Below the pieces are notes generated by a model that was not told the DNA's origin, did no database searches, and saw only the letters and a list, made by a program, of their open reading frames with translations. A stretch of 64,000 nucleotides of DNA, taken from positions 3,195 to 67,194 of the forward strand of contig JAADHH010000095.1 in assembly GCA_013151955.1 (NCBI GenBank). Direction: 5' to 3'. This stretch comes from Chloroflexota bacterium (GTDB lineage Bacteria; Chloroflexota; Anaerolineae; Ardenticatenales; JAADHH01). The translations under genes were made by a program, and so were the position numbers. Numbering within the stretch: position 1 is the stretch's first letter; each line of letters opens with the position of its first letter. Below, one piece after another: positions 40,515 through 63,591 of this stretch.

Positions 40515-40526
40515 CAATGATTGAAG

Positions 40527-40655
40527 GTATCTTCTCGATAATTCGGGGTGAGCAGAACGTCATGCCCCCCTAACCCCCCAACTTTGGGGGGAATGTGCTC
40601 CCCCAGAATTGGGGGCCGGGGGGCGTTCGCGTTCCCCAAGTTATCGAGAAGATAC
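40527..40655 (+). mobile_element. MITE, shared-TIR superfamily, core type A (copy A2) with perfect 8-bp TSD
   Basis: GTATCTTCTCGATAATTCGGGG ... CCCCAAGTTATCGAGAAGATAC. Flanked by GATTGAAG at 40519-26 and 40656-63. Inserted between the CoA-transferase stop and the thiolase RBS. Confidence 0.92.
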
Positions 40656-41831: not shown

Positions 41832-43457
41832 ATGCAAGGCTTAATGATGGACTACCCGCTCACCATTCAGACAATCCTGGAGCGGGTAAATCAGTTCTAT
41901 CCGCGGAAGGAGGTTATCTCCAAGCTGCCTACCGGTGTACATCGCTATACCTACGGCGATTTCTACCGGCGCGTGCACCGCCTGGCGAATGTATTGCAAG
42001 ATTTGGGGGTGAAACCGGGGGATCGCGTGGCGACCTTTTCCTGGAATCACTACCGCCACCTCGAACTGTACTACGCGATTCCCTGCATGGGCGCGGTGCT
42101 GCACACGTTGAACATTCGCTTGTTTCCTGAGCAGCTCGCTTATGTGATCAATCACGCCGAGGACAAAGCTATTTTCGTTGACGCCAGCTTGCTCCCCTTG
42201 GTGGAACGGATCAAGGAGCACATCGGCGGCGTAGGTACATTCGTGATCATGAACGACACCGGCCAGCCGCCCCAAACGGCATTGGAACCGCTTGCCGATT
42301 ATGAGGGCCTGATGGCCGGTGCGGCGGAGACGTTCGCCTTTCCGCAACTTGGCGAAAATGATGCGGCGGTGATGTGCTACACCTCCGGCACGACAGGCGA
42401 GCCGAAAGGGGCGGTCTACAGCCATCGCGCGATCTATCTCCATTCCATGGCCGAGTGCATGGCAGATACATTGGCTCTTTCGGAACGGGACACCATCATG
42501 CCGGTGGTACCGATGTTCCACGCCAATGCCTGGGGGGTTCCCTTTGCAGCCCCGATGACCGGCGCTTCCCAGGTATTCCCCGGGCCCTTCATGAAACCGC
42601 CCGATCTGGCCGGCTTGATTCAGGATGAGAAAGTCACTTTCACCGCCGGTGTGCCGACCCTCTGGTTTGGTCTCTACCACTTGTTGATGCAGGAAGATTA
42701 CGACATGAGCAGCCTGCGGGCGATGGTCGTTGGCGGAGCGGCAATGCCCCAGAGCCTGATCGAGGATTTCGAGAAGAATTTGGGTATCCGGGTCATCCAT
42801 GCCTGGGGCATGACGGAGACGACCCCGTTGGGCACGGTGGCCAACCTGAAGAGCAATATGGATTCGTGGTCCGAGGCCGATCGCTACAGTGTGCGGGCCA
42901 AACAGGGCACACCTGTGCCAGGCGTGGAAATCCGCGCCATGGATGAAGCCGGTAACATCGTGCCTTGGGATGGCCAGACGATGGGCGAGTTGCAAGTGCG
43001 CGGCCCCTGGGTCATTCGGAGCTATTACAACGATCCGCGCAGCCCACAATCTTTTACCGACGACGGCTGGTTGCACACCGGAGATGTGGTAACGATTGAC
43101 CCCGAAGGGTATATGCAGATCACCGACCGGACAAAAGATCTGGTGAAGAGTGGCGGCGAATGGATTTCTTCGCAGGCGCTGGAGAATGCGCTGATGGCGC
43201 ACGACAAGGTGCTCGAAGCGGCCGTGATCGCCATTCCGCACCCCGAGTGGCAAGAACGCCCGTTGGCCTGTGTGGTGATCGCACCGGAGCACAAAGACCA
43301 GGTGACGAAAGAAGAATTGTTGGCCTTCATTCGGCCCAAGTTTGCCAAGTGGTGGCTGCCGGACGATGTCGTCTTTGTGGAGGAGTTGCCCAAAACCAGT
43401 GTCGGAAAGTTCGACAAGAAGGTGTTGCGCGAGCGATACAAGGAGTACGGGTTATAG
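41832..43457 (+). CDS. AMP-dependent acyl-CoA synthetase (medium/long-chain fatty acid-CoA ligase)
   Basis: 541 aa. AMP-binding 'YTSGTTGEPKGA', 'GWLHTGDV', and 'PKTSVGKFDKK'. Confidence 0.93.
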   Translation: MQGLMMDYPLTIQTILERVNQFYPRKEVISKLPTGVHRYTYGDFYRRVHRLANVLQDLGVKPGDRVATFSWNHYRHLELYYAIPCMGAVLHTLNIRLFPEQLAYVINHAEDKAIFVDASLLPLVERIKEHIGGVGTFVIMNDTGQPPQTALEPLADYEGLMAGAAETFAFPQLGENDAAVMCYTSGTTGEPKGAVYSHRAIYLHSMAECMADTLALSERDTIMPVVPMFHANAWGVPFAAPMTGASQVFPGPFMKPPDLAGLIQDEKVTFTAGVPTLWFGLYHLLMQEDYDMSSLRAMVVGGAAMPQSLIEDFEKNLGIRVIHAWGMTETTPLGTVANLKSNMDSWSEADRYSVRAKQGTPVPGVEIRAMDEAGNIVPWDGQTMGELQVRGPWVIRSYYNDPRSPQSFTDDGWLHTGDVVTIDPEGYMQITDRTKDLVKSGGEWISSQALENALMAHDKVLEAAVIAIPHPEWQERPLACVVIAPEHKDQVTKEELLAFIRPKFAKWWLPDDVVFVEELPKTSVGKFDKKVLRERYKEYGL

Positions 43458-44159
43458 GGGACGAGCCAGAGTCAGGCCGTAGACGGCTTGCGCTCCCTGT
43501 TCACGAAGGGTGTGCGCGCAGGCCGACAAGGTCGCTCCGGTAGTCAGGACGTCATCAATCAGGAGGGGGCGATGGCCGGCGACGTGAGCAGGCGAGGCTT
43601 CGAACGCCCCCTGCACATTCAGCCACCGTTCACGTGCCGAGAGGCCAACTTGGGGAGGCGTTTGGCGCGTGCGCCGCAGGGCCTGTTCCACCACGGGCAA
43701 GCCTGTGCGCTGCGCCAGACGCTCTGCTAAGAGGGTGGATTGGTTGTATCCCCGTTCTTGTTCGCGGGTTTGGTGCAGCGGCACCGGCACGATCATGTCT
43801 GCGGAAAAGGTCTGGGCTTCCCAAACATCCAGGAGAAGGTCGCCCAGCGGGTTGGCCAAATCGCGCAGATTGTTGTATTTGAGAACGTGAATGGCTCTGC
43901 GGAGAGGGCCGTCGAACGGTGCGACCGCGCGTAGCCGGTCGAATTCCGGGGGGTGCGCGCGACAGAATCCACACGTGCTTTTCCGGGACGGGAGTGCCCT
44001 GCTGCACGTGGGGCATACGGGGCCGGCAAAAGGGGTGATGTGGTCAAGACAAGATGGGCAGAGGAGCGCACCGGTTTTCCGGCAATGCACACAGCGTGGC
44101 GGGAAGAGGAGGTCGAGCAGGGTTTTCTGGGTTTTGATCCAATGATGCCGCAGATTCAT
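43452..44159 (-). CDS. comF: ComF-family phosphoribosyltransferase-like protein (competence protein ComFC type)
   Basis: 356-aa ORF trimmed to ATG 44159 (235 aa): N-terminal zinc fingers 'CVHCRKTGALLCPSC...CPTCSRAL...CGFC' and PRTase motif 'LLIDDVLTTGATL'. Its start overlaps the DUF192 stop by 4 nt. Confidence 0.88.
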   Translation of the reverse strand: MNLRHHWIKTQKTLLDLLFPPRCVHCRKTGALLCPSCLDHITPFAGPVCPTCSRALPSRKSTCGFCRAHPPEFDRLRAVAPFDGPLRRAIHVLKYNNLRDLANPLGDLLLDVWEAQTFSADMIVPVPLHQTREQERGYNQSTLLAERLAQRTGLPVVEQALRRTRQTPPQVGLSARERWLNVQGAFEASPAHVAGHRPLLIDDVLTTGATLSACAHTLREQGAQAVYGLTLARPL

Positions 44160-44503
44160 GAATCGAAGATCGCCAGTTTGTCCCCGACGACGATGCCTTG
44201 CCGGGCAATGGTGCCGGCCGGCAGCTCTAAGACTGCGTGCGTCCCCCGAACCCAGGGGCCGGGACGTTGCGGTGGCATGGCCTCGGTCAGGCGGATGACT
44301 GTATTGTTCTCGTCGAGATACAAAACATCGATGGGAAAGCGCATCAGAAATGTGTGGATGGAGCTTTCGGGGCACAGCAGGAGGCCTTCCCCTTTGGCAA
44401 GCGCCTTCCTTCCCAGCAGCCCGCGCAAACGGGCAAGAAAACTTGTCGCCATCATACCACGTGTCACGATTTCGGTGTTTCGGGTGAGATTTGTAACTCT
44501 CAT
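44156..44503 (-). CDS. DUF192 (COG1430) domain protein
   Basis: 115 aa. 'ARLRGLLGRKALAKGEGLLLCPESSIHTFLMRFPIDVLYLDENN' fits the DUF192 pattern. 4-nt overlaps with tadC upstream and comF downstream. Confidence 0.8.
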   Translation of the reverse strand: MRVTNLTRNTEIVTRGMMATSFLARLRGLLGRKALAKGEGLLLCPESSIHTFLMRFPIDVLYLDENNTVIRLTEAMPPQRPGPWVRGTHAVLELPAGTIARQGIVVGDKLAIFDS

Positions 44504-45429
44504 ATCCCCTTGAAGGTTTCAATCAAACGAGGTATGGCCGGCCCGAGTAGAACGATGAAGAGCGAAGGGAAGATCAGGAAGGCCAGTGGGATGAGCATTT
44601 TGATCGGCGCTTTTTGGGCCGCTTCTTCGGCGCGCTGCCGTCGTTTGATGCGCATCTGCTTCGACTGAATGCGCAACACCTTGGCAATGCTCACGCCCAA
44701 TTGGTCGGCCTGGATGATGGCGGCTGCAAAGCTGGTAACGTCGTCCACATCCATGCGGTAGGCCATCTCCCGGAGCGCTTCCCGGCGCGATTTCCCAATC
44801 CGAAGTTCGCTGATGACCCGTCCAAAGGCTTGAGATAGTTCGTTGTCCCACTTTTCGTTTACCTTGGCCAGGGCAGCATCAAAGCCAAGTCCCGCTTCGA
44901 CGCTGATCGTGAGCAGGTCCAGGGCATCGGGCAACGCTTTTATAATTTCATGCTGTCGTTGGCGGATTTTCTGGCCTAACCACATCGTAGGCAGGAAAAA
45001 GCCGAGGGCTACGAGGGCGATTACAAAGAAAAGTATCCTGGAGGGCTCTGTGCGGGCGAGGAAAAAGAGCACGCCCGGGACAGCTCCTGTAACCAGCGCC
45101 GAGAGGCCGCGCACACCCATGAACTCAGCCGGCGTCCAGTCGTTGGGGTTGCCGGCCATATCGAGCTTGTGTTGCAGAGTTTCGAGGTTTCTTTGGGGAG
45201 CAAAGCGCATAACAAAACCGGACATGGTCTGGATGATTGGCTTGATGGCCCGATCCTGGAAAGGTACTTGCAATTCGATTTCTTCCAACGTGCGGGGTTG
45301 CCGGCCCCCATAGCGGTTGAGTCTTTCTTGCACAGGGTTCTCGCGGCGGGTGAGGGCCAGGCCCACGAAGATCAAGGCAATGCTTGATCCGGCGAGCAAG
45401 GCAACGATCAAGGCCAGCAGTCCACTCAT
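44500..45429 (-). CDS. tadC: Tad pilus inner-membrane platform protein TadC (T2SS-F family)
   Basis: ORF trimmed to ATG 45429 (MSGLLALIVALLAGSSIALIFVG...). T2SSF domain 'ALPDALDLLTISVEAGLGFDAAL'. Confidence 0.9.
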   Translation of the reverse strand: MSGLLALIVALLAGSSIALIFVGLALTRRENPVQERLNRYGGRQPRTLEEIELQVPFQDRAIKPIIQTMSGFVMRFAPQRNLETLQHKLDMAGNPNDWTPAEFMGVRGLSALVTGAVPGVLFFLARTEPSRILFFVIALVALGFFLPTMWLGQKIRQRQHEIIKALPDALDLLTISVEAGLGFDAALAKVNEKWDNELSQAFGRVISELRIGKSRREALREMAYRMDVDDVTSFAAAIIQADQLGVSIAKVLRIQSKQMRIKRRQRAEEAAQKAPIKMLIPLAFLIFPSLFIVLLGPAIPRLIETFKGI

Positions 45430-45431
45430 AA

Positions 45432-46394
45432 TTACACCTCGATATTCACAATTTTTCGGATGATGAAGAAACCGATGGTGATCATCACGATAGCAACCGT
45501 CAGCATCGTCCACCCGCAGGTAGTGGTGTAGAGCAAAGACATATACTCTTTGTCAATGACAAACAGGACGGCGGCCAGGATGACGGGCAAGAGGGTGATG
45601 ATATATCCGGATAGCATCTGCTGAGAGGTCAACACACGGATTTCGCCCTGAATGCGCACCCGTTCTCGTATCGTTTCGCCGATAATGTCCAGGATTTCGG
45701 CAAGATTGCCGCCCACTTCGCTTTGGACGAGGACGGCCGTGATCATCATGTCCAGGTCTTCGCTGTTGATGCGACGCAGCATATTGTTGAGGGCTTCTTC
45801 GTTTGTCAGCCCCAGCCCGACCTCCCGCACCACACGTTCAAATTCTATGGAGATGGGGGGAGATAACTCGCGGGAGATCACTTCAATAGATTGCATGAGG
45901 CTGTAGCCGGCCCGCAGGCTGTTGGCCAGCAGGGTGATTGCATCGCCCAGTTGATCATTGAAGGCGTTCAGGCGGCGTTGCTGTCGCCAGCGCACGTACA
46001 GACGCGGCAAGAAATATCCGCCAATGCTGAAGATCAAGGCCAGGACGAGCACGCGAAACAGGACCAACCCCAAAAGGAAAGTCAGGAGCACAGTGGCGAT
46101 GTTAATCAAGATATATTCGGAGGTCGTGATTTTGAGGTCGGCGCGAGCCAGTTCGACGGCCAGTGCCGGCCCGGCAACGCGACGTTCCAACATGCGGTTG
46201 AGCATCTGGGCAAAGCGACCTGGACGTTTGCTGTCACCTTCTTGAGTGGGTTGCACCACTCCTTCCCGCGTGGCATAGCGGTCCAGACGAGAACCGATCA
46301 CTTCGGCCCGACTGCCCATGAATTGGGCCAAGCCGCCGAAGAACATCAGTACGGCGATCCCCATAGCAATTGAAAGGATGATTGGCGAAATCAC
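45432..46394 (-). CDS. tadB: Tad pilus inner-membrane platform protein TadB (T2SS-F family)
   Basis: 320 aa. 'QLGDAITLLANSLRAGYSLMQSIE' T2SSF motif and 3-4 TM helices. Confidence 0.9.
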   Translation of the reverse strand: MISPIILSIAMGIAVLMFFGGLAQFMGSRAEVIGSRLDRYATREGVVQPTQEGDSKRPGRFAQMLNRMLERRVAGPALAVELARADLKITTSEYILINIATVLLTFLLGLVLFRVLVLALIFSIGGYFLPRLYVRWRQQRRLNAFNDQLGDAITLLANSLRAGYSLMQSIEVISRELSPPISIEFERVVREVGLGLTNEEALNNMLRRINSEDLDMMITAVLVQSEVGGNLAEILDIIGETIRERVRIQGEIRVLTSQQMLSGYIITLLPVILAAVLFVIDKEYMSLLYTTTCGWTMLTVAIVMITIGFFIIRKIVNIEV

Positions 46395-46478
46395 TCTGCA
46401 AACTCCGAAATAAGGTTATGCACCCAGTCCGCCAGAATGGGCGGACAAAGTGCGTGGCCCTTGAGTCAGCCCGGGCAG

Positions 46479-47873
46479 CTACGAATAATACTGGTCGTCC
46501 ATCCCAAACATGTTCGGGGGCAGCATAATTCCCGTGGCTTCTATGCGATCTACGAATTTAGGACGAATGCCGGTCGGGCGTAGCCGGCCCACAATACGCC
46601 CATCTTCAATGCCCGTTTGTTGGAAGACGAATATGTCCTGCATGACGATCACATCGCCTTCCATGCCTTGGACTTCGGCGATGTTCACCACTTTTCTGGT
46701 GCCATCGCGGAAGCGGTCTTGGTGAACGATCAGGTCGATGGCCGATGAGATTTGCTCGCGGATGGCCCGCAGCGGCAGGGCCATTCCGGCCATCAGAGTC
46801 ATCGTTTCGAGACGAGCCAGTGTGTCGCGCGGCCCATTCGAGTGTGCCGTAGTCATGCTGCCGTCGTGGCCCGTGTTCATCGCTTGCAACATATCCAGGG
46901 CTTCGGCTGCGCGCACCTCGCCAACGATGATGCGATCAGGGCGCATACGCAGCGCATTGACGACGAGCTGCCGGATGGACACCTCGCCACGTCCCTCGAT
47001 GTTGGGAGGGCGTGATTCCAATGTGACGACATGCTCTTGTCTGAGTTTGAGTTCTGCAGCGTTTTCAATCGTGACGATTCGCTCGTCGTTGGGAATGCTC
47101 GACGATAAGATGTTGAGCAGGGTCGTCTTTCCCGAACCGGTGCCGCCAGAAACTACGACATTCAACCGGGACTTTACGCAGGCATCCAAAAACTCCAACG
47201 CCTCGGAAGTTATGGAGCCAAACCGCAACAGGTCTTCCCCACCCAGACGTTCACGGCCAAACTTTCGGATGGTGATGGTGGGGCCTATGAGTGCCAGAGG
47301 GGGGATGATGATGTTGACACGTGATCCATCTGGCAGGCGAGCATCCACATAAGGCTGGCTCTCATCCACCCGGCGTCCAATGGGGGAGACAATGCGGTCG
47401 ATGATGCGCATCACATGTTCATCATCGTCGAACAGGTTCGTGACCTTTTCCAGTTTTCCGGCCCGCTCTATGTAGATGCTTTTTGGCCCGTTGACCATGA
47501 TTTCGGTGATGCTGTCGTCTTGTAAGAGGGGTTCAATGGGGCCGTAGCCCAGGATTTCCGCCAGAACCTGTTCAAATAAGGCCCGGCGTTGGGATCGCGT
47601 CAGCACCATGCCTTCCTGGGCCAACAGCGTGTCGAACACCTGACGGATCGTTTCCTGCATTTCTTCCCGATGGCTGAGGTCAATCTGCGTATCCAATTCG
47701 GCGATGAGTTGTGTTTGGATCCGCCTTTTGAGAGATGTGAGAGGGTCTTTGGCCTTGGCCAACGGTTGACGACGGAAGCGCAACGCTTCCATTTTGGAAG
47801 TGCCCTGCTCCTTGTCACCGATATCAGGGAGCCGGCCGGTTTGTTTCTTTTCAAGTCGCTTGAGTAAAGACAT
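46479..47873 (-). CDS. cpaF: Tad pilus secretion ATPase CpaF/TadA
   Basis: 464 aa. Walker A 'SGGTGSGKTTLLN', 'RPDRIIVGEVR', and 'TGHDGSMTTAHSN' (His box). Confidence 0.95.
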   Translation of the reverse strand: MSLLKRLEKKQTGRLPDIGDKEQGTSKMEALRFRRQPLAKAKDPLTSLKRRIQTQLIAELDTQIDLSHREEMQETIRQVFDTLLAQEGMVLTRSQRRALFEQVLAEILGYGPIEPLLQDDSITEIMVNGPKSIYIERAGKLEKVTNLFDDDEHVMRIIDRIVSPIGRRVDESQPYVDARLPDGSRVNIIIPPLALIGPTITIRKFGRERLGGEDLLRFGSITSEALEFLDACVKSRLNVVVSGGTGSGKTTLLNILSSSIPNDERIVTIENAAELKLRQEHVVTLESRPPNIEGRGEVSIRQLVVNALRMRPDRIIVGEVRAAEALDMLQAMNTGHDGSMTTAHSNGPRDTLARLETMTLMAGMALPLRAIREQISSAIDLIVHQDRFRDGTRKVVNIAEVQGMEGDVIVMQDIFVFQQTGIEDGRIVGRLRPTGIRPKFVDRIEATGIMLPPNMFGMDDQYYS

Positions 47874-47890
47874 ATTCTAGCACCAAGTTT

Positions 47891-48085
47891 CTACGCATTG
47901 TCCGAGACTTCGCTCAGAAAATGTGGCCCCTGACGGGGCAGTTGACAAAAGGACAGGGGACACAGATTTACACAGGCTTCGACACAGGCTTCGCACACAG
48001 ATTTTTCTGAATGTTTTATCTCTGTTTTTCTGTGTCCTACAGAAACATCGACAACTTTTTGTCGACCTTGACGCCCTAAGCGCCT
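47891..48085 (-). repeat. Family C repeat, copy C3 (subtype b)
   Basis: The reverse complement is about 90% identical by eye to 63391-63582. It fills the cpaE-cpaF intercistronic gap and abuts the cpaE stop codon. Confidence 0.88.
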
Positions 48086-49376
48086 ACCGCTTCCGCCACC
48101 GTCTAAATAGTCCTCCGGGAGTTGCTGCCTGCTTTTTGTGCATTGTTTCCGTCGGACCCGGCGGGGGCAGTTGTTCGACGATTTGCTGGGCCAGGTGTAA
48201 CAGGTTCTGCCCAACAGCAGAGTTCGGCTGCCCCTGTACGACAGGCAGACCCTGGTTGACGGCTTTGGTCGTTGCCGCATCATCACGTATCACGTCGGTA
48301 AGGACAGGATGTTTCACACTGGCTTCTATGTCGCGTACGCGAATCCCTCCTCGGGGGTCGTGCTTGTTGAGCACGAGCAAAATCTTTTCCGGCTCATAGG
48401 TCAAAGCCTCGGTAACCTCGAAGAAGGTCTTGGTATTTTTTATGGCCGTTATTTCGGTCGTCGTCAACAGAATGATTCGGTCGCTAAGATCAAATAGAGT
48501 CAATGTTGGTTCTTGGAAAGAAGTCCACGTATCAATTACGATGTAATCAAAGATCAGTCGCAGCTTCTCCAGGATTATGGTCAGGTGCTCCGTCGTGACG
48601 AGTTCGGCCATCTCGGGCTTGGGTGGTGAGAGCAGGGCCTTTACGCCGGAGGAGTGCGTGATCAGCAAACCGGCCAGGAATTCTTCGTCCAGGTCGTCAA
48701 TTTGCTCGACGGCGTCAACTATGCTCCTTTGGGAAGAAAGGTTCAGGAGTACACCCACGTCGCCAAATTGCAGACTGCCATCCACAATCGCTACTTTGGT
48801 CTTCGTCACTTCTCGAATGGCGATTGCCAGATTGGTGACCACCGTGCTGGTTCCGACCCCCCCCTTTGCGCCATAAACGGTAATCACTCTCCCTTTCGGC
48901 GATGGCGGGACGGGCTGGGCGACCGGTACCGGAGCCAACGCCTCTCCTTGGGGAGGCGGGGGGGTGGCCGGGCGACGGCGCTGGCCCAAGTCGTAAACGC
49001 GCCGTATGCTGGTGACCAATTCTTCTGCGGTGAAGGGTTTGATCAGGAATTCGCGTGCGCCGGCCAACATGGAACGTCGCAGGTAGTCGGCCTCTCCCTG
49101 TACCGACATCATGATCACCTGGGTGTTGGGAGCGCTTTCCGATATTTTCTCGCCGGCCGTCACCCCGTCCATGCCCGGCATGTTGATGTCCATCAAGACG
49201 ACATCTGGCTGCAACTCCATGACCATCTCGACACCTTCCGCACCGTCCGATGCCGAGCCAACAACCTGAATGTCCTTTTCGAAGTATAGGAGCTTCTTTA
49301 GGTTCTCACGAGTTTCCGGTATATCATCCACAACCAGGACGTGGATCATTTTGTTAGGGTCTGCGTTTTCAGACAT
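48084..49376 (-). CDS. cpaE: Response-regulator receiver domain fused to CpaE/TadZ-type MinD/ParA ATPase
   Basis: 430 aa. REC 'IHVLVVDDIPETR...DVVLMDINMPGMDG...MMSVQG...FLIKPF' has all phospho-acceptor residues. Then 'VITVYGAKGGVGTSTVVTNLA', a deviant Walker A. Confidence 0.9.
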   Translation of the reverse strand: MSENADPNKMIHVLVVDDIPETRENLKKLLYFEKDIQVVGSASDGAEGVEMVMELQPDVVLMDINMPGMDGVTAGEKISESAPNTQVIMMSVQGEADYLRRSMLAGAREFLIKPFTAEELVTSIRRVYDLGQRRRPATPPPPQGEALAPVPVAQPVPPSPKGRVITVYGAKGGVGTSTVVTNLAIAIREVTKTKVAIVDGSLQFGDVGVLLNLSSQRSIVDAVEQIDDLDEEFLAGLLITHSSGVKALLSPPKPEMAELVTTEHLTIILEKLRLIFDYIVIDTWTSFQEPTLTLFDLSDRIILLTTTEITAIKNTKTFFEVTEALTYEPEKILLVLNKHDPRGGIRVRDIEASVKHPVLTDVIRDDAATTKAVNQGLPVVQGQPNSAVGQNLLHLAQQIVEQLPPPGPTETMHKKQAATPGGLFRRWRKR

Positions 49377-49411
49377 GCGCCTGCGTCAACTCCTTGCCGG
49401 ACCAATTATGC

Positions 49412-50191
49412 TTATCGAGGGCGAACATCAAATTCGCGAATTATGTAGTCTTCGTTCACGGTCTCTGTCTTGACCTCTTCGTGATCTCCGGCAGCACGTA
49501 GCGCCAGATCCACAAGGGTGTTCTCCCGTAGACTTTTCAGGATGATTGCCTGTTGGCGGTCGACCAAAAAAGTGATCACTTGTTGTTGCTGGTTCTGCTG
49601 CTGATTGCTCGGAATGTTCCACGATCCCACGCGCAGGACCTCGATATCTTGCAAGGCGAGTTGTGTGGCCGGTTTTTGGGTGACGCCTTGGGCCGTGTCT
49701 TCTTGCAGCCTCATGCTCACCAGAACATCGACTCTATCGCCCGCCTGGATCGCTCCGGCGACACCACTAATGTTGTCCACGGGCATAGCCACGGCTACTT
49801 TGCCTTTCGGAATGATGAACGATGCGTCCGAGCCCAGCCCCAGTCTCGTTTCTTCCACCTTTTTGTCGATCAACATTGAGCTCAGCAGGATCTGGCCGGG
49901 GAAGATCGGGCTTCTCGTCAGCTTGCCCACCGCGTCCGCCGGATTCAATATCGCGCCAGGCGGAACGGAGTCCTGCGGCCACTCCTTGACTCCGATTGCG
50001 TCGGGGGGTACCGGGACATGGGCTTCGATATTCTGGAACGCGACCACCACAGATGCCGTCTCTACGGGCTGGACGTTAGTCCCTTGCGGCTGGCGGCGCA
50101 ATATGAACAGGGTGGCTCCTGCAGACACAATGGCAAGGATGAACCCTAGTACAATCAGGAGTCTTGCGCTACGTTGCATCTTTTCCTCCAA
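49412..50191 (-). CDS. cpaB: Flp pilus assembly protein CpaB/RcpC (SAF domain)
   Basis: 259 aa. N-terminal TM helix 'ARLLIVLGFILAIVSAGATLFIL'. Position upstream of cpaE. Confidence 0.8.
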   Translation of the reverse strand: MEEKMQRSARLLIVLGFILAIVSAGATLFILRRQPQGTNVQPVETASVVVAFQNIEAHVPVPPDAIGVKEWPQDSVPPGAILNPADAVGKLTRSPIFPGQILLSSMLIDKKVEETRLGLGSDASFIIPKGKVAVAMPVDNISGVAGAIQAGDRVDVLVSMRLQEDTAQGVTQKPATQLALQDIEVLRVGSWNIPSNQQQNQQQQVITFLVDRQQAIILKSLRENTLVDLALRAAGDHEEVKTETVNEDYIIREFDVRPR

Positions 50192-50335
50192 TATTTCGCG
50201 TGATGTAGGGTCATTAAATCGCCCTCATGGTGATTGGGTGATGATAAACGAGTACGTAATGTCCGATGTTCTCTCGCCACTACCAATATTTTACATCGAA
50301 ACCTACGAAAGAGCAAAATGTGACAACTTAGAATT

Positions 50336-52027
50336 TCAATCAGCCCGCACGGTGGGCAAAAAGAGAACCTGATTGGAATCTCTGGGTGCATAATAGAGTT
50401 CGATGCCGTGCAACACCGGTGTAGTAGAAGAGAGTGCCGTAGAAAAATTCAAACGATAGTTCACCTGGCCGGTCGTTTGGATGGGCACTACGTAGGTGAT
50501 TCGCGACGTTTGTGTCAGTGCGTTGGTTGCCTGGCCAGCGGCGACCAGCGGATGCGACGAAATGTCTGTGTCGACCCACGGTTGGCTGGAGTCTGCCTGA
50601 TAGGCAAAGGTAATTGTGGCAGCCGTCGTATCGGTTATGGCCGTTTCCAGAGCGAACCGCTGCAGGTAGCTGTTCTCCGGTAGTTGCATCGTGCCGGTGT
50701 AGATCCCGTGTGGCATGTATTGCGCGGCCAGGCCACGTGTGGGGGCACTGTACACGCTTGCCTGAGGGAAAGCGTGGGTGTTCGCCCCACCGACCACGAA
50801 GATGTGGTCCGCCAGCCAGGTCCCTGTGTGCGCGTAGCGCGGGGCCGGCAAGGGATAGGTCGTTCGCCAGACGGGGTCACCGGCCTGCTCACGATATAGG
50901 TAATCGGGTGCGGAAGGATCCAGCGCGACGCTGATCACTTCGTCCCGGTGGCCGCTGGTCAAGGTGGGGCCTACCCCGCCGGCCAAAAGAATTTGAGCGT
51001 TGACTTGAACTGTTGCTGCCTCCAAAAAGGATTCTGGGAGTGGCAAGGAAGCCGTATGCCAATTGGAAAGCGACCCATCCGGCTGGATATCGGCGTAGAA
51101 CATGCTGGCATTGCCCTGCCCAGACGAGACGTCGTCTCCGCCCATGACGAAAAGTGTAGCATTGCCATCAGCGTGACGATAGAGCACGGACATAGCGTGT
51201 GCCAGCACTTTTGGGAGCGCCGGCGCGGTCTGGAATGCCGTGATGTGTCCGGCTCCATCTATGTCTGCCCAATGCACTTCATTGTGAGTTTGGGCGCTCC
51301 CTCCGATCACTGTCTGTCCCCCCAGGAAGTACAGGTGTTGCCCGTACAACGCTCCCATGGCGTAATGCGCGGGATATGGCAAGCGTACGGTCTCTGTGAT
51401 CCAGGAACTGATGGTGCCATCTGGCTGCATGGTCGCGCGGAAGATGGTATCCTGCGAGGGGAACTCCAGGCCCGGTCCCTGTCGTGTAAATCCTCCAAGA
51501 ATGTAAAGGTACGTTTCCGTCGAGTCCAGCAAGGCTATGTGGCCGGCCAGGGCAACAGGCATCGCGTTGGCCAACGGTTGCCACGGATTCAATTGAATCG
51601 CGGCCCCATTTTCGGTTGATGATACCACAGAAGTGGCATAGATGGTGTTGGTCGGATTGATTCCGTCTGCGCCTATGCCTCCGGTCACATACAGCCGATT
51701 TCCACGGGCCACGGTTGCCATCTGGCTACGGGGGGCAGGGAGAGATTCTGCGGCCTGCCACGGTTCGGTCACCCCGATAGGTAGCAGTTGCAACGCGCCA
51801 CCGGCGAGATCAATCACTTGGACGTGGCTCGTCTGCCCAGCTTCAAAGTCCGCGACCGTGGTGTGGGGAATCGAGAAAGCGGTCCAGCTTGCTCCCAAGG
51901 GGAGTAGCCCCTGGCGTGCAGTTGCAGATATGAGTATGAGTAGAGCGCCCAAGACAAATAGAGGCCATCGTTTCCCCGCCCGGCGATATCTCATGATCGG
52001 TTGTAACACATTTCTTTCTTGGCGCAT
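50336..52027 (-). CDS. Membrane-anchored Kelch-type beta-propeller protein (6 blades) with C-terminal beta-sandwich region
   Basis: 563 aa (alternative start ATG 51994). TM 'WPLFVLGALLILISA'. Blades marked by RLYVTGGIG, YLYILGGF, HLYFLGGQ, TLFVMGGDD, ILLAGGVG and IFVVGGAN. Confidence 0.75.
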   Translation of the reverse strand: MRQERNVLQPIMRYRRAGKRWPLFVLGALLILISATARQGLLPLGASWTAFSIPHTTVADFEAGQTSHVQVIDLAGGALQLLPIGVTEPWQAAESLPAPRSQMATVARGNRLYVTGGIGADGINPTNTIYATSVVSSTENGAAIQLNPWQPLANAMPVALAGHIALLDSTETYLYILGGFTRQGPGLEFPSQDTIFRATMQPDGTISSWITETVRLPYPAHYAMGALYGQHLYFLGGQTVIGGSAQTHNEVHWADIDGAGHITAFQTAPALPKVLAHAMSVLYRHADGNATLFVMGGDDVSSGQGNASMFYADIQPDGSLSNWHTASLPLPESFLEAATVQVNAQILLAGGVGPTLTSGHRDEVISVALDPSAPDYLYREQAGDPVWRTTYPLPAPRYAHTGTWLADHIFVVGGANTHAFPQASVYSAPTRGLAAQYMPHGIYTGTMQLPENSYLQRFALETAITDTTAATITFAYQADSSQPWVDTDISSHPLVAAGQATNALTQTSRITYVVPIQTTGQVNYRLNFSTALSSTTPVLHGIELYYAPRDSNQVLFLPTVRAD

Positions 52028-52086
52028 ACCGGCCGGTTGCTAATAGGAACCTGGTGCGCTTGCCACGAATCGATTGGGTCACGCTG

Positions 52087-53337
52087 CTATCGTGTCATTT
52101 TAATGATCATCACGCCTTTGTCGTTGGCGCCGCCCAGCTCCCCTTGTGGAGCTACGTACCGTACGAAATGTCCCCGAATGTATTTGTTGTCCCCGTGATC
52201 TTGAATCTCGTCCACCTGGAAGGCGGCAAAGGAGACGATGTTATAGTAATACTTGTTATCATAAGTGCCGTTATTTGTGTAGGTGTCTATGATAGTCGCA
52301 TAAGCGGGGTCGCTCCACCCGTATTGACCATAGGCCGGGTTGTTATGGCATTGTCCTGGGTTGGGGCCAGGGTCATACGAGCCACCGACATCGCGGTGGT
52401 TGCTGGGATCATCGTTGCACTTCTGGTCTGTCGTGTAATGATAGGCAATGTCGTAGACCGGCATGATCAGCACCTGGCCGACGTGTGCTTCCCGTAGGAT
52501 GTGCTGGGTATCCCGGGGTGGATAGCGGTGTTCTTGCTCCCAGCCATACTTTCCTGCGGGGTCTCCTTGTATGCGCGTGCGCTCGAATATCGTGGAGTCG
52601 TGGTATCCTTCACGGGTCCACTGCTTGAGTAGTGCGTCGCCGATGTTGCACTTGTTCGGGTACGCGCAACTGAGGTCCAGCAAGGCGGCGTTTGCGCCGG
52701 TGATGTCGCCACTATCCAACGTGCAGCCGCTCCCCCCTCCGTGGTGATTGCTCTGGTAGGCGTCGTCATGGTATCCACCGTCGTCATCATGGTGGTCATC
52801 TCCATGCTGGTTACAATCCTGTCCCCAAATTTTGTACGAGGCTCCGTATGTGAAATCGAAATTCGAGATGGCGATGGGAGACAATCCGCTTACGGCCTTC
52901 GCCGTGCCGAATTGTGCCGTCGCTTCGGCCATGACAGTGAACGTGGGGCGGCCCACGATGCCCGAAACATAGCCATTGAATTGGTGTCCCGCCTGCACAC
53001 GCACTCCATTCGTCCAAGACGGTGTCGGTTGATTCAGACATTGAACGGGTACGTCACGTGGCGTATAGAACATGGAAACTTTGTCGCTATCGGCCCCCTG
53101 GCGCGTGACCGCATATTCCCGAATCGTGGAACACAGGGCCAATTCATTCGTTTGCCCGGTGGCCAGGGCTACCGCTCCGGCTATGGCCGCACTGTCGGCC
53201 GCATTTTGCATACTGCGTCGCTGTAAATAGTTGTTGCTACCATCAACGGACAAGGCCAGGAAGCCCAGCAAAGCAGCTAAGACCAGGGCTATTATGACCA
53301 TCGACTGTCCTTCTTCTCTTCGCATGATCTGTATCAT
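52087..53337 (-). CDS. TadG-like (Tad_N, pilus-assembly) protein with His/Asp-rich insert
   Basis: 416 aa. N-terminus 'REEGQSMVIIALVLAALLGFLALSVDGSNNYLQRRSMQNAADSAAIAGA' is the TadG/Tad_N pattern. 'HGDDHHDDDGGYHDDAYQSNHHGGG' at residues 177-200. Confidence 0.75.
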   Translation of the reverse strand: MIQIMRREEGQSMVIIALVLAALLGFLALSVDGSNNYLQRRSMQNAADSAAIAGAVALATGQTNELALCSTIREYAVTRQGADSDKVSMFYTPRDVPVQCLNQPTPSWTNGVRVQAGHQFNGYVSGIVGRPTFTVMAEATAQFGTAKAVSGLSPIAISNFDFTYGASYKIWGQDCNQHGDDHHDDDGGYHDDAYQSNHHGGGSGCTLDSGDITGANAALLDLSCAYPNKCNIGDALLKQWTREGYHDSTIFERTRIQGDPAGKYGWEQEHRYPPRDTQHILREAHVGQVLIMPVYDIAYHYTTDQKCNDDPSNHRDVGGSYDPGPNPGQCHNNPAYGQYGWSDPAYATIIDTYTNNGTYDNKYYYNIVSFAAFQVDEIQDHGDNKYIRGHFVRYVAPQGELGGANDKGVMIIKMTR

Positions 53338-53363
53338 CGTCCACGGCTCCCCTCACCCCAAAA

Positions 53364-53487
53364 GCGACGAATGAATTCGCCGCCTGAGACTGCTGCGTAG
53401 TGCGTTAAAACGCACTATTCCTGCTATTCCTGCATGACAGCAACCTGTTTCAACAGGTTTCGCAATTATAGGCAGGCAATTCATTGC
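53364..53487 (-). repeat. Family F repeat, copy F2
   Basis: Reverse complement of F1 (18694-18812), about 88% identical by eye. Lies between the tadE-like and tadG-like genes. The spurious ORF 53353..53583 runs through it. Confidence 0.85.
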
Positions 53488-53495
53488 TCTTTTTC

Positions 53496-53954
53496 TCAAT
53501 TGCTGCGCACCGGTTGGACGGCTGTTGCCTGCAACTGGATATTCTGTCGTCCCGTAAAGCTGCGGAAAAAGGGTGTAATCCAATCGTACTCGTAAGACAG
53601 GGTCACGGTAATGGTGTCCCCAATGCCCGGTGATACCGGATCGCTTAGGTCTACAGCTACGTTGGTAATCTTGCTGGTATCGACGAGACCTTGTTGACTT
53701 TCATGTCTGGTGCGATAGTCCACGTTGTCCGGATCGGCACAGGACGCCCCACTCGAGGCGTAGGGGCAGCCGGGGTAGAAGGAGCCGTAGGAGGCTCCTT
53801 CGCCCGCCGCATTGCCCAGTGCAACATAAGTGAAATAGGCACGCCCCAAGTCTGCGATACCCATGATCAATAGAATGAGTACCGTCATCCCCAGGGCCAA
53901 CTCAACGATGCCCTGGCCTCTCTCCTCGCCAATCCTCATTCGGTTCCACCCCAT
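53496..53954 (-). CDS. TadE-like pseudopilin
   Basis: 152 aa. 'GEERGQGIVELALGMTVLILLIMGIADLGRAYFTYVALGNAAGEGASYG' is the TadE N-terminal domain. Confidence 0.85.
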   Translation of the reverse strand: MGWNRMRIGEERGQGIVELALGMTVLILLIMGIADLGRAYFTYVALGNAAGEGASYGSFYPGCPYASSGASCADPDNVDYRTRHESQQGLVDTSKITNVAVDLSDPVSPGIGDTITVTLSYEYDWITPFFRSFTGRQNIQLQATAVQPVRSN

Positions 53955-54035
53955 GTCCTCATCTCTTCCCCAGTTGTCAGCTTATGACACGTGAAACGTG
54001 TTCCGTACTGCACCGTTCACCATTCATCATTCACG

Positions 54036-57000
54036 CTACGGGCAGGGTCTGGTCCCAGTGATCTGCGGGGCCAGGTCCACAACGTGGGTCTGGTCGTCAG
54101 AACCCGTGAATGAGACTTGAGCCGTACCCGCCGAACTGGGTGGCGGATTGCTCACAGTCGCCGAAAGCGTGATCGTCACCGAATCGTCAACCTTCATGTT
54201 GCCCAGGTTCCAGGTCATCGTCTGGCCATTGACGCTGGCCGGCGACGGATTGGCCGAGCCGTTCACATATTGCAAGTCAGCCGGCAACACCTCGGTAACT
54301 ACCACATTCTTCCAAATGATCTGTGTGATCTGTGTGCCAATATCCTGGAAAATTCCGGCTAGATCGCTGGAGTTCGGCGCTTCATAGTAATGCGCACTAT
54401 CCGAAGCCATACTTCGCAGTACATTGCGGGCCAGGTTCTCCGTAGCGCTGCCGTGTTGCTGCCCGACATCGCCCAGGTTGAGACCAATCGTGAATACCGT
54501 GGTCCCCTGGTTCTTGGCGGAAGCCGCTTGGTTGATGGCGTCATTCGTGCAGTTGGTGGGCGAAGAGGGCCAAGTGCTGCAACCCTGGGAGCTGCCATGC
54601 CGGCGGTTGGCCACACCATCGCTCAGCACGACGATGATCGGTATGGCATTGCTTCGCGCCCGGCTGCTGTTTAGCTCTTGTTGAGCCTTGTAGACGGCAT
54701 CGCCGATGTTGGTGTAACCATTGGCGTTGAAGTTGTCGATGGCGTTTTTCACGCTATTGAAATTGTTCGTCAGACTGTGGTCCTTGCTGGCTGTCGTAGA
54801 GTAGGAAACGAGCCCTACTTTGTCCGTGCTGGAATCGAGCTGATCGATCAGCAGTTTGGCCGCACTCTTGGCATCGCTGATGGGCTGCGGTGGGTTGCCA
54901 CCCGCGTCGTCCATGGAACCGGAGCGATCGAGCACGATCATGACATCCAGCTTGGTATGTTGCGTGAACGGTGTCCCCGTAGGTTGGACCCCTATGGCAA
55001 TGTCGGCAATCTCGCACTGCCCAGAGGTCGTCGGCGTAGCCGTTACCGTTGGTGTGGGCGTGGCTGTGGACGTGGGCGTGCTGGTAGCCCCTCCCTGCGG
55101 CGTACTGGTCGCCGCCGGCGGCGCGCACGGCCCCGGTTGCACGTTGACTGTGTTCTGACCAACGCGGCTGGGCGATGCGTGGATGTAGGGGATCGTCACA
55201 TGGTCGAACCCGGCTTGCCCAAAGGCGGCCTTGTCCACGTCCACGGTGTAAATCACTTCGTAGAGCCAGTTCGGATAACTCGGGTTGGGCGTGTAGTTGG
55301 CATCTGTCGCCGGCGAATCGGTGGTCATGTTGGAGTATCCGGCGCTATTCAGATTGTAGTCCAGCGATGTAGAAGCGCTCAGCACCCAGGCTGCATTCCC
55401 CACATTCACGCTGCCGTCACCGCCCGTCACCCCTTGGGAGGCATAGCCGGAAGGCGCGCTGCCATCCACATCCAGATAGTCTACGGAAATATCCATCACC
55501 TCACTGCCGTTGCCATCGTAGAGCAGGAACTGCGCCCGGTCGCTCTTCCAGAGGTCCTGGAACGTGTGTTGTTTGAGCCGGCCATTCTTCCAGTACTCAG
55601 ATGTGTTGGCTCCGTAGGTGTTGTCCACGAATTCCTTATCCAATACCAGGCGGATGCGGATGTACCCGCCCATGTCTGTGGCGTACAGTTGGGTGTAGAA
55701 GTATTCGGGTCCCTGGCCCGGGTAGGCCGGGTTTGGCGACACATAGCAGACTTCCTGGCTGCCGCCGGGGGTCGGCGTGGCGGTGGGCGAACCGGAAGGG
55801 GTGGTCGTACTCGTCGGCGTCGATTCAGGCCCCTGACTGCCGCCGCTGCCACTGGTGGTGATGCTGCAACCATTTTCAAAGTAGAAGGTCACCACAAAGT
55901 CGCCCATGTTGAAATAGGAAGCCAGGTCGGATGGACTATGGTCGAAGTCCGCCTCCCAGGTTTTGCCGTGGTTCTTCTTGATTTCCTTATCACCGGAGAA
56001 GTGCGAGACGTCGGTGGGGGACGAATGCCCATCGCCACCCCAGATGCGGTGGCCGCCCAACTTGAACCAGTCGATCTTCATGTGCGGGTAATGATCGCTC
56101 TCCGGCCAGTAGAAGACAATGCGGTCGAGTTCTGCATCCTCGTCCGTGCCATTCGTGATTGTGGTTTGCACGTGGTCCTTGTTGCTGGGCACGGTGACCA
56201 GTTGGCTGGCCGTCAGACCGCTGCACTGCGACGAGGTCGTCGGTACCGGCGTGGGGCTAGGCTGTGCCGTAGACTCTGGCGTGGGGCTAGGCCCAAACTG
56301 GCTGCTGCCCGATGCGGAAACGGCGCACCCACCCTCGAAATAAATGGTCACCTGGTAGCTGGAGAGGTTGAAGACGTCGGTCAAGTGTTCGGGGCCGTCC
56401 TTGATCTTGGCTTTCCAGGTCTTGTGGTGGCCGTGCTCAATCTCACGGTGATCATCATGTCCAGACAGGGTGACATCGGTGGGCGGCGAGGCGTCATCTC
56501 CCTCCCATATTTCGTGGTCATCCAGCTTGAACTTGTCCACCTTCATGTTGGGGTAATCGCCGCTGGTCGGCCAGACAAAGTAGATCCGGGTAATCTTGGC
56601 GTTATCGTGACTGGCATTGTTCGTAAGGGTAACCCGCAGTTCGTCATTATCGTGCAAGGTTATGTCGCTGGCGGCGATGCTCTGGCACTGCGCGGGAGTG
56701 GTCGGTGTCGGGCTGCTGGCAATTGTTGTGGCGGTGGGAGACGAGCGGCCGCAATCCGAGACCTGGATGGTAACAGAATCTTGCTCACCGGTCGCCGGTA
56801 CGACAGCGTACACACGGTAGCGTCCGGTGCCCTGGTTGCCTCCGTTCATGTCGTCGGGGACAACGGTAACATTGCGATGGGCATTGAAGTCATCCAGGTG
56901 CCAGTTCCGAAACTGTTCCGGCCCCGGTTGTTGTTCGTAATAGAAAGTATACGACGTGCCCACCGGAGAGACTTGCACATAGTTGCTCAGATTGAACGTG

Positions 57001-57560
57001 TCCCAAATACACACGCTCAGGTTTTCCGTCGCGAAGGAAACATCTCCCCCCGGATTGGGTGTCGTGGTGGGCGTGAAGGTCGGTGTGGGCAAGGGCGCAA
57101 AGGTAGGAGGACTATCCTGCCATGGAGCCGATTCGCCTCCCGATCCAACAATGGTGCGTGCAGAGACAAAGCTGACCGTCATCGATGGTAGGATACGGTT
57201 GATAAACGGGGTCATCGGATGGTAAGAATAGCTGGGAGTTACCACGATGCGGTAGTCTCCCGGTATCGTTTGCGAAAGGTCTACGTTGTGACCAAAAACG
57301 CCGTCATCATAGGCGATGGCAACGTGTACATCATCGGCGCGAATGGTTACAATTTTGGAGCGTACTGCCTGAATGATCCCCAAGGTATCGCCCGGATTGG
57401 CCGCACCGTAGCGGGAACCTTCCCTTGCCGCATTCGACAGATTGCTCCAAAGCAACATAGCATGGCCCATGTCCACAATGCCTGAAATGATGATGAGCAA
57501 TATCGGCAGTACAAGCGCAAATTCTAGTAAGCTCTGCCCTTTTTGGGTTCTTCTCTTCAT
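54036..57560 (-). CDS. Giant TadE-N-terminal / vWA-domain protein (1174 aa) with internal tandem modules; putative pilus-associated adhesin
   Basis: SD GGAGGG upstream. N-terminus 'MKRRTQKGQSLLEFALVLPILLIIISGIVDMGHAMLLWSNLSNAAREGSRYG' (TadE). vWA MIDAS 'VLDRSGSMDD...YTNIG...VVLSDGVANRR' (residues ~869-1080). Thr/Pro linkers. Two homologous ~127-aa modules at residues 291-417 and 445-570. Confidence 0.85.
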   Translation of the reverse strand: MKRRTQKGQSLLEFALVLPILLIIISGIVDMGHAMLLWSNLSNAAREGSRYGAANPGDTLGIIQAVRSKIVTIRADDVHVAIAYDDGVFGHNVDLSQTIPGDYRIVVTPSYSYHPMTPFINRILPSMTVSFVSARTIVGSGGESAPWQDSPPTFAPLPTPTFTPTTTPNPGGDVSFATENLSVCIWDTFNLSNYVQVSPVGTSYTFYYEQQPGPEQFRNWHLDDFNAHRNVTVVPDDMNGGNQGTGRYRVYAVVPATGEQDSVTIQVSDCGRSSPTATTIASSPTPTTPAQCQSIAASDITLHDNDELRVTLTNNASHDNAKITRIYFVWPTSGDYPNMKVDKFKLDDHEIWEGDDASPPTDVTLSGHDDHREIEHGHHKTWKAKIKDGPEHLTDVFNLSSYQVTIYFEGGCAVSASGSSQFGPSPTPESTAQPSPTPVPTTSSQCSGLTASQLVTVPSNKDHVQTTITNGTDEDAELDRIVFYWPESDHYPHMKIDWFKLGGHRIWGGDGHSSPTDVSHFSGDKEIKKNHGKTWEADFDHSPSDLASYFNMGDFVVTFYFENGCSITTSGSGGSQGPESTPTSTTTPSGSPTATPTPGGSQEVCYVSPNPAYPGQGPEYFYTQLYATDMGGYIRIRLVLDKEFVDNTYGANTSEYWKNGRLKQHTFQDLWKSDRAQFLLYDGNGSEVMDISVDYLDVDGSAPSGYASQGVTGGDGSVNVGNAAWVLSASTSLDYNLNSAGYSNMTTDSPATDANYTPNPSYPNWLYEVIYTVDVDKAAFGQAGFDHVTIPYIHASPSRVGQNTVNVQPGPCAPPAATSTPQGGATSTPTSTATPTPTVTATPTTSGQCEIADIAIGVQPTGTPFTQHTKLDVMIVLDRSGSMDDAGGNPPQPISDAKSAAKLLIDQLDSSTDKVGLVSYSTTASKDHSLTNNFNSVKNAIDNFNANGYTNIGDAVYKAQQELNSSRARSNAIPIIVVLSDGVANRRHGSSQGCSTWPSSPTNCTNDAINQAASAKNQGTTVFTIGLNLGDVGQQHGSATENLARNVLRSMASDSAHYYEAPNSSDLAGIFQDIGTQITQIIWKNVVVTEVLPADLQYVNGSANPSPASVNGQTMTWNLGNMKVDDSVTITLSATVSNPPPSSAGTAQVSFTGSDDQTHVVDLAPQITGTRPCP

Positions 57561-57717
57561 GGGTCCTGCCCTCCACGTCTACGCAAGCATGTAGAATCCG
57601 AAGATGGTCTTGAAATAGTCTTTGCCTTCTACTATTATATCCTAACGCTACGTGCCAAGCAATAGGATTGTAGTACCGTTACACAGCCAACTTCTGCCAT
57701 TGTGACAAGCAAATGAG

Positions 57718-57842
57718 GTATCTTCTCAATAATTCGGGGTGAGTGGACCGTCGTGCCTCCCTACCCCCCAAAAACTTTTGGGGGAGTGTGCTCCCCCAGA
57801 ATTGGGGCCCCGGGGGCGTTTCCCAGGTTATTGAGAAGATAC
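57718..57842 (+). mobile_element. MITE, shared-TIR superfamily, core type A (copy A3)
   Basis: GTATCTTCTCAATAATTCGGGG ... CCCAGGTTATTGAGAAGATAC. Flanks CAAATGAG / CAAATGGA match at 6 of 8. Confidence 0.85.
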
Positions 57843-57898
57843 CAAATGGACGAATCGGCGAATGTCCCCTGGCCAAAGACCACGCCGGTCTGCCAAAA

Positions 57899-59863: not shown

Positions 59864-59885
59864 ACCTGTCTCCTCAATCAATTTT

Positions 59886-63582: not shown

Positions 63583-63591
63583 ATACTTTCG

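Follow-up and report, generated by a model that had tools for sequence, protein, structure and literature searches.

A tad pilus gene cluster of a Chloroflexota bacterium with an extended minor-pilin module and a distant flp gene

The window analyzed here is a stretch of 64,000 nt from an uncultured Chloroflexota bacterium (GenBank assembly GCA_013151955.1, contig JAADHH010000095.1, positions 3,195–67,194), which carries a gene cluster of the Tad pilus type. The whole stretch was covered by an open reading frame (ORF) list and by Pfam and NCBIfam scans. Eleven consecutive genes were found on the minus strand, running from 57560 to 43452 and encoding, in this order, a giant TadE-VWA-DUF11 protein, a small TadE-like protein, a TadG-like protein, a Kelch protein, CpaB, a CpaE with a receiver domain (REC-CpaE), CpaF, TadB, TadC, a DUF192 protein, and a ComF-family protein (Table 1). 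The original prediction, made from the letters alone, had proposed these identities and this order together with a textbook core of CpaF, TadB/C, CpaE, and CpaB, and the profile searches recovered all of these families. The start of tadC abuts the stop of tadB, and overlaps of 4 nt link the tadC stop with the DUF192 start and the DUF192 stop with the comF start; for comF, the predicted identity stood and the start was corrected to 44159. All eleven ORFs were intact and under purifying selection. The ratio of nonsynonymous to synonymous substitution rates (dN/dS), calculated against the sister genome L081, was 0.06–0.18 for every gene, which argues that the locus is maintained by selection.

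Table 1. Coordinates and supporting evidence for the tad cluster, the flp unit, the predicted cleavage sites, and the intergenic repeats of the window
Feature	Position	Strand	Evidence or remarks
Giant TadE-VWA-DUF11 protein, 1174 aa	54036–57560	minus	Pfam TadE residues 8–50 (E 2e-12), VWA 872–1072 (E 1e-21), DUF11 1084–1156
TadE/TadF-type small minor pilin, 152 aa	53496–53954	minus	Pfam TadE PF07811, E 6e-11
TadG/CpaL-type minor-pilin-like protein, 416 aa	52087–53337	minus	Pfam Tad/PF13400 N-terminus E 2e-10; weak Tad_C
Kelch protein, 563 aa	50336–52027	minus	Pfam Kelch repeats
CpaB/RcpC, N-terminal transmembrane (TM) segment	49412–50191	minus	Pfam SAF and RcpC; NCBIfam TIGR03177 141.5 bits vs cut-off 71
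REC-CpaE (CpaE/TadZ-type MinD/ParA ATPase with receiver)	48084–49376	minus	Pfam Response_reg E 6e-30, AAA_31, CbiA
CpaF/TadA motor ATPase	46479–47873	minus	Pfam T2SSE E 9e-62
TadB platform protein	45432–46394	minus	Pfam T2SSF
TadC platform protein	44500–45429	minus	Pfam T2SSF
DUF192 protein, 115 aa, without signal peptide	44156–44503	minus	Pfam PF02643 E 9e-21
ComF/ComFC-family protein	43452–44159	minus	Pfam double zinc ribbon and PRTase
Stand-alone flp unit	9882–10235	minus	Sequence read, Pfam, Flp HMM
Predicted cleavage, Flp			MLYLPQEEG/QGLVEY
Predicted cleavage, giant protein			MKRRTQKG/QSLLEF
Predicted cleavage, TadE-like protein			...ERG/QGIVEL
Predicted cleavage, TadG-like protein			...EEG/QSMVII
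Repeat in cpaE-cpaF gap	47885–48086		85–98% match to 63389–63588 (inverted) and 31518–31708
Repeat in tadE-tadG gap	53360–53488		92–100% match to 18693–18815, inverted, upstream of mreC
Repeat between amidohydrolase gene and giant gene	57710–57848		Copies at 2562–2700, 40521–40630, 63259–63397
Repeat family	2562–2700, 40521–40630, 57710–57848, 63259–63397
Repeat family	17089–17184, 31518–31742, 47885–48086, 61556–61600, 63389–63588
Repeat family	18693–18815, 53360–53488
Repeat family	2800–2931, 10280–10376, 36350–36534, 39060–39222

The assignment to the Tad family was supported by the presence of the CpaF ATPase, the paralogous TadB and TadC, TadZ/CpaE with a receiver, CpaB/RcpC, a small Flp with a G/XXXXEY site encoded apart from the cluster, and a TadE/TadF/TadG set consisting of two PF07811 proteins and one PF13400 protein. 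CpaF scored 335 bits with the NCBIfam TadA-family model TIGR03819, slightly under the cut-off of 373, and was 65–70% identical to CpaF of Chloroflexota. The likely start of CpaB is an ATG at approximately 50179. The receiver domain of CpaE was canonical and not degenerate: in the translation, the DD, D, S, and K phospho-acceptor residues were all present, and the domain looks phosphorylatable. In structurally characterized TadZ, this domain is degenerate. No histidine kinase gene was seen near the REC-CpaE gene.

Relatives were collected by a CpaF-based scan with one genome per species, which gave 80 loci (L001–L080); five further loci were added through homologues of the Kelch or the giant protein. 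The 34 best loci (L001–L034; CpaF identity of 59–70%) were almost all labelled Chloroflexota and included Anaerolineae, Caldilineaceae, Thermoflexus, Ardenticatenaceae, Promineifilaceae, Limnocylindria, and others. The core order cpaB-cpaE-cpaF-tadB-tadC-(DUF192)-comF was conserved across these 34 Chloroflexota loci. The same gene order was kept in the sister genome L081 and, without the Kelch and ComF genes, in L086. Both Tad clusters and Tad pili have been reported from Chloroflexota (PMC4877987, PMC7332563, PMC13319060). The Anaerolineales cluster pilA/flp-cpaB-cpaE-cpaF-tadB-tadC has the same core genes in the same order and no secretin gene, and some of these clusters also lack a preceding pilin gene (Xia et al. 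2016, PMC4877987). The Chloroflexales genes rcpC-tadZABC, tadEEG, and flp (PMC7332563) and the Litorilinea Tad pili (PMC13319060) likewise share the core of the present locus. Compared with these described clusters, CpaF is 61–70% identical. What sets the locus apart from these described clusters is the position of flp beside a gene for a CCA-adding enzyme and the presence of the 1174-aa TadE-VWA-DUF11 protein and the Kelch protein in the module. DUF192 and ComF are not mentioned in the three papers, though both are conserved in the loci compared here.

As predicted, the cluster contains no flp gene, and the only flp of the window was found at 9947–10102 on the minus strand, approximately 34 kb away. 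A hidden Markov model (HMM) of Flp built from related loci matched it with an E-value of 7e-22, and no other small ORF of the window scored. The gene has its own promoter (-35 TTGCTT at 10235–10230, a 17-nt spacer, and -10 TATAAT at 10212–10207), a Shine-Dalgarno sequence GGAGG at 10116–10112, 9 nt before the ATG, a coding sequence at 10102–9947, and an intrinsic terminator at 9914–9882. The product has 51 aa and would give a mature pilin of 42 residues. It was 77–84% identical to the cluster-linked Flp of relatives and is thus the orthologue in a new position. An identical 51-aa Flp was present beside the CCA-adding enzyme gene in three sister-species assemblies (L087–L089), where the proteins neighboring flp were 85–91% identical. 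No flp was found in cis in the sister tad loci L081 and L086; a 48-aa ORF of L086 (19071–19217) was considered and rejected. Since flp is missing in cis from L081 and L086 and the orphan position is kept in L087–L089, the relocation is stable in the lineage. Among the 25 evaluable related loci, flp was in cis in 14 and absent within 4–12 kb upstream in 11. The orphan flp adjoins large GT-C-type membrane glycosyltransferase genes (DUF2079 and PMT-like), with a further PMT_2 gene 18 kb off; the genes concerned are at 4921–9836 on the plus strand and at 28123–30192 and 1117–2229 on the minus strand. In L088, a PMT_2 gene (6821–9724) follows flp on the same strand. This neighborhood hints at O-glycosylation of the pilin.

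The predicted lack of a prepilin peptidase and a secretin gene was confirmed within the 64-kb window. No TadV/CpaA-type A24 peptidase was found there by tblastn or by an HMM from Pfam-verified A24 seeds, and no RcpA secretin was found. A short ORF at 19698–20210 with five TM segments, the only short multi-TM ORF, was rejected as a peptidase because it is MreD by Pfam. The A24 HMM had no match in L001–L034 and none in L081–L085. Overall, an A24 gene in cis was found in 0 of 36 Chloroflexota-type loci vs. 27 of 46 other loci (L035–L080; other phyla or other gene order); the sole Chloroflexota match was in L038, a locus with a different gene order. An unlinked tadV is typical of actinobacterial tad loci (PMC4322843). 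Secretin homologues were present in 13 other loci, mostly of diderm phyla, between cpaB and cpaE, and in none of the Chloroflexota loci; their absence is expected because the envelope is monoderm. The claim that these absences make the architecture unusual was not upheld by the comparison of loci, according to which missing pilin, peptidase, and secretin genes are normal for this lineage. For the present genome, the A24 (TadV-type) peptidase is presumably encoded elsewhere, in line with the original prediction.

A shared N-terminal motif resembling a class-III signal had been noted in four proteins. A six-frame regular-expression search gave exactly four matches in 64 kb, each at the N-terminus of Flp, the giant, the TadE-like, or the TadG-like protein. 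According to the G/XXXXEY rule (PMC4322843), cleavage would take place after the first Gly, two residues upstream of the site originally marked (Table 1). Position 5 of the mature TadG-like protein would be Ile and not Glu, so its cleavage is uncertain. All TadG-like proteins of the related loci had I, V, or L at position 5 and lacked Glu5. The lack of Glu5 fits the view of TadG/CpaL as an apical PilK/GspK-like subunit (PMC13533445). The TadG-like protein had no VWA domain, and its C-terminus had no Pfam match at E ≤ 1. A His/Asp-rich stretch was observed at residues ~175–205 (QHGDDHHDDDGGYHDDAYQSNHHGGG); this insert may bind metal.

The prediction had counted three large genes as non-standard Tad components. 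This was accurate for the Kelch gene; the other two products are TadE- and TadG-family minor pilins by Pfam. Heterotrimeric modular tip complexes of TadE/F/G proteins have been described in Myxococcus and predicted in many other bacteria (PMC12075869), and TadE/F/G modules with modular extensions are known from Myxococcus, Caulobacter, and others (PMC12075869, PMC13533445). By their domains, the two TadE-type proteins and the one TadG-type protein correspond to this known minor-pilin set. The dN/dS values against L081 were 0.07 for the TadG-like, 0.12 for the TadE-like, and 0.10 for the giant protein, and the small TadE-like gene was conserved in L081, L082, and L086. The giant protein consists of the signal and TadE region, tandem beta-sandwich repeats at residues ~291–420 and ~446–572, an unannotated beta-rich region at ~600–860, the VWA domain, and DUF11. 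Its central ~700 residues had no Pfam match even at E ≤ 1. The metal ion-dependent adhesion site (MIDAS) of the VWA domain is intact (LDRSGSM; DxSxS). Homologues of the giant were limited to five close clusters of 64–91% identity, one of which (P0019) had no VWA match. Against PDB sequences, the giant, the TadG-like, and the Kelch protein gave only generic VWA or Kelch matches, with a weak sequence match to the VWA of Mfa5. In the relatives L022, L004, and L020, a VWA domain is carried by the TadG-like protein (766, 910, and 974 aa, respectively); in the lineage studied here, it is carried by the TadE-family giant instead. Among related loci, the VWA module changes place between the TadG type and the TadE type of minor pilin. 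The giant is an oversized adhesin-like minor pilin and mildly new.

The Kelch protein was modelled by AlphaFold2 with a TM helix at residues 23–39, a six-bladed propeller at 88–431 with a predicted local distance difference test score (pLDDT) above 90, and a C-terminal domain of low confidence, which had no Pfam match at E ≤ 1. The top Foldseek matches of the propeller were the Kelch domains of LZTR1, KLHDC, Keap1, and YjhT. Close homologues were rare (four clusters at ≥52% identity). With a Kelch HMM, a Kelch gene was located as the next gene behind the TadG-like one in L081, L082–84, L085, L018 (Thermoflexus), and L022 (Ca. Aquidulcis). The tad-linked Kelch proteins have in common the N-terminal anchor, a motif ahead of the propeller, and, at the extreme C-terminus, a tail φ-φ-L-P-φ-φ-(R/K), which in the window reads ...VLFLPTVRAD (50336–50370). 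Observed variants of the tail were VFLPLVLRNW, VYLPLVFKQSP, VFLPIILKKA, VYLPAILKNR, and LYLPVIHKP. Tail-bearing ORFs were located in L018 (2510–5647), L022 (4732–7059), L085 (4489–7446), L004 (143–1945), L020 (650–1999), and L038 (14286–16226). In L004 and L020, these ORFs lack annotation and closely precede the minor-pilin genes; in L038, the tail-bearing product is a propeller protein of the FG-GAP type, encoded at a distance of 3 kb from tad. This tail may function as a strand for docking or, alternatively, as a surface-protein signal specific to the phylum. No mention of Kelch proteins together with Tad pili was found in the literature searched. From its distribution, the Kelch protein is a recurrent but dispensable accessory and the one real extra of the locus, also mildly new. 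In our interpretation, it is extracellular, membrane-anchored, and co-inherited with the minor-pilin module and probably has a ligand-binding or tip-associated role.

At the other end of the cluster, 26 of the 27 evaluable loci of Chloroflexota, which span several classes, had a comF gene downstream of tadC in the same orientation. A DUF192 gene came after tadC in 14 of these 27 loci and, among 46 loci from other phyla (Firmicutes, Acidobacteriota, Actinomycetota, Verrucomicrobiota), in ~23; one published tad operon of Firmicutes has it at its 3' end as well (PMC12786226). Judged by this synteny, DUF192 and ComF are conserved neighbors of tadC and not oddities of the locus. The ComF product contains the zinc ribbon and PRTase domains of its family, and a role in DNA uptake could be considered. 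Its NCBIfam scores for GntX (E 5e-40) and comF TIGR00201 (E 5e-33; 114.8 bits vs. cut-off 233.6) were both under the cut-offs. In five relatives, comF is followed by hpf (S30AE): L020 (14657–15229), L010 (14155–14718), L022 (14536–15072), L004 (14402–15115), and L017 (14032–14589). The window has no hpf at this position. The unit downstream of tadC may be a comF-hpf pair, a housekeeping combination common among bacteria.

Two gaps of the cluster, 47874–48083 and 53338–53495, had been described as repeat-filled. The repeats are present, but they are dispersed copies found across the window and not a feature specific to the operon. The repeat in the cpaE-cpaF gap is hairpin-rich (z = -2.6); L081 and L086 do not have it in this gap, which indicates a recent insertion. 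The locus is bounded upstream by the repeat that separates the giant gene from the amidohydrolase gene; this repeat carries a terminator-like hairpin (57798–57779), and a promoter-like site lies at 57658–57631. At least four families of hairpin-rich intergenic repeats of 30–200 nt, with 75–100% identity and in both orientations, were observed to fill many spacers of the window. Rfam gave no match in the window, and the counts of a promoter and terminator scan were not above shuffled expectation. The genes of the cluster are presumably co-transcribed.

Upstream of the tad locus, and also on the minus strand, are genes for an amidohydrolase, FapA, and GluRS. FapA and the amidohydrolase were rejected as members of the locus since they accompany it only in the closest relatives L081 and L086 and at no other tad locus. 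Only in the three closest genomes do FapA/DUF342 (59987–61498) and the amidohydrolase (57899–59881) immediately precede the locus in the same orientation. The remaining genes of the window are of housekeeping type (mreBCD, pbp2, minCD, rodA, CoA metabolism, and GT-C glycosyltransferases).

We interpret the locus, with a probability of about 0.8, as a functional Tad (type IVc) pilus operon of the known Chloroflexota/monoderm family with a lineage-specific tip module. CpaF would drive insertion and extraction of the pilin through the TadB/TadC platform, REC-CpaE (TadZ) would position or regulate the machine, and CpaB/RcpC would form an extracytoplasmic collar; a secretin would not be needed because there is no outer membrane. 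By analogy with CpaJ/K/L of Caulobacter and KilL/M/N of Myxococcus, the three prepilin-like proteins may form a priming or tip complex, with the TadG-like protein lacking Glu5 at the apex and the giant TadE-family subunit displaying a metal-dependent VWA adhesin module and beta-sandwich domains. The fibre would polymerize from the 42-residue Flp, supplied in trans by a separate monocistronic gene 34 kb off. An unlinked A24 (TadV-type) peptidase would mature Flp and the TadE-type prepilins after the Gly of G/XXXXE(Y/F/L). The Kelch protein would be a membrane-anchored extracellular accessory, binding a ligand or associated with the tip.

Several observations weigh against this interpretation. 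The A24 peptidase was not recovered for this genome, of which 64 kb were searched. Flp scored below the gathering threshold of the Pfam Flp_Fap family (27 vs. 32 bits; E 3e-6). The AlphaFold2 model of the giant was poor (mean pLDDT 44); none of its parts except the two repeats and the VWA domain reached moderate confidence. Weak terminator-like sites in two hairpin-rich intergenic gaps make a single transcript uncertain. Finally, Kelch genes are absent from L086, whose giant is 71% identical; the Kelch protein is thus dispensable for the machine.

A more specific role of the Kelch protein, as a non-pilin tip subunit and functional analogue of PilC/PilY1, was also considered. Its C-terminal strand would dock on the TadG-like protein by beta-strand addition and, together with the VWA of the giant, would make up a split "VWA + propeller" adhesin. 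Such a role is suggested by Kelch genes that immediately follow the TadG-like gene in five or more independent lineages or loci of Chloroflexota, by the common TM anchor, pre-propeller motif, and C-terminal tail, and by a dN/dS of 0.16 against L081; beta-strand addition by PilY1 or CpaL is established in other type IV filaments (PMC13533445). However, the propeller is a generic six-bladed Kelch fold and not of the PilY1 type, the N-terminal membrane anchor is kept, and L086 lacks the gene. The tail also occurs on the FG-GAP protein 3 kb outside the tad locus and on unrelated ORFs and may be a general surface-protein signal of Chloroflexota, and TadG/CpaL supplies its own terminal strand (PMC13533445). 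We therefore regard this role as unlikely. Taken as a whole, the picture of a previously undescribed Chloroflexota Tad tip accessory, in which a membrane-launched Kelch propeller with its tail docked on the Glu5-less TadG-like protein forms with the VWA-bearing giant TadE pilin a split PilY1-like adhesin on a monoderm pilus, is rather improbable.

The pilus could also serve primarily for DNA uptake (competence), as in Micrococcus luteus, with a translationally coupled ComF acting after DNA capture. The 4-nt overlaps of comF with DUF192 and of DUF192 with tadC are in line with this function, as is the near-constant position of comF after tadC in the Chloroflexota loci, and Tad-dependent transformation has been established in a monoderm (PMC4322843). 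On the other hand, the order comF-hpf in relatives means that the adjacency may reflect conserved synteny of two separate units, and ComF is missing from the otherwise identical L086 locus. No comEA, comEC, or dprA was found in the window, the ComF scores stay under the NCBIfam cut-offs, and the VWA and Kelch modules would fit adhesion better than DNA binding. A primary role in DNA uptake is therefore quite unlikely, and the idea that the conserved tadC-DUF192-comF coupling marks a DNA-uptake organelle is weaker than that of a Kelch subunit at the tip. A silent or decaying remnant left after loss of the pilin and peptidase genes, for which one could cite the Anaerolineales clusters without a preceding pilin gene that showed no transcription in one metatranscriptome (PMC4877987), is very improbable in view of eleven intact ORFs under purifying selection, the gene order kept in sister genomes, and an intact, conserved flp with strong expression signals in the same genome.

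The functional monoderm Tad pilus that we favor can be compared with better characterized systems. The tad-1/tad-2 loci of Micrococcus luteus (PMC4322843) are similar in their monoderm host, the lack of a secretin, the unlinked tadV, the small Flp with a G/XXXXEY site, and the TadE/F-like minor pilins. They differ in the lack of TadZ and in the retention of flp in the cluster, and they function in DNA uptake, which is only a possible role of the present locus. KilL/M/N of Myxococcus and CpaJ/CpaK/CpaL of Caulobacter (PMC12075869, PMC13533445, PMC12607857) also comprise three TadE/TadF/TadG-type proteins, one of them large and modular. In Myxococcus, moreover, the gene for the major pilin lies apart from those of the machinery, and a second peptidase, not yet assigned to a gene, has been postulated. 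In these systems, the large modular subunit is of the TadG/KilN/CpaL type, whereas here a TadE-family protein is the largest subunit and the bearer of the VWA domain; their hosts are diderm and possess secretins, unlike in the present locus. A VWA domain with MIDAS is grafted on a pilin in PilB of Streptococcus sanguinis (as cited in PMC12075869) and is carried by the fimbrial tip subunit Mfa5 of P. gingivalis (PDB 6tnj). Both belong to another filament class and have no homology to the giant outside the VWA.

These findings on their own open no long-standing question. The shift of the VWA domain between minor-pilin types fits the idea of an "adaptable tip" for Tad pili. For pilus specialists, it may be of use that Kelch genes with a conserved tail recur in the minor-pilin module of Chloroflexota and that tadC is followed by DUF192 in many phyla and by ComF in almost all Chloroflexota loci. 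The analysis is chiefly of value as a correction: a Chloroflexota tad cluster without pilin, peptidase, and secretin genes should not be taken for an anomaly.

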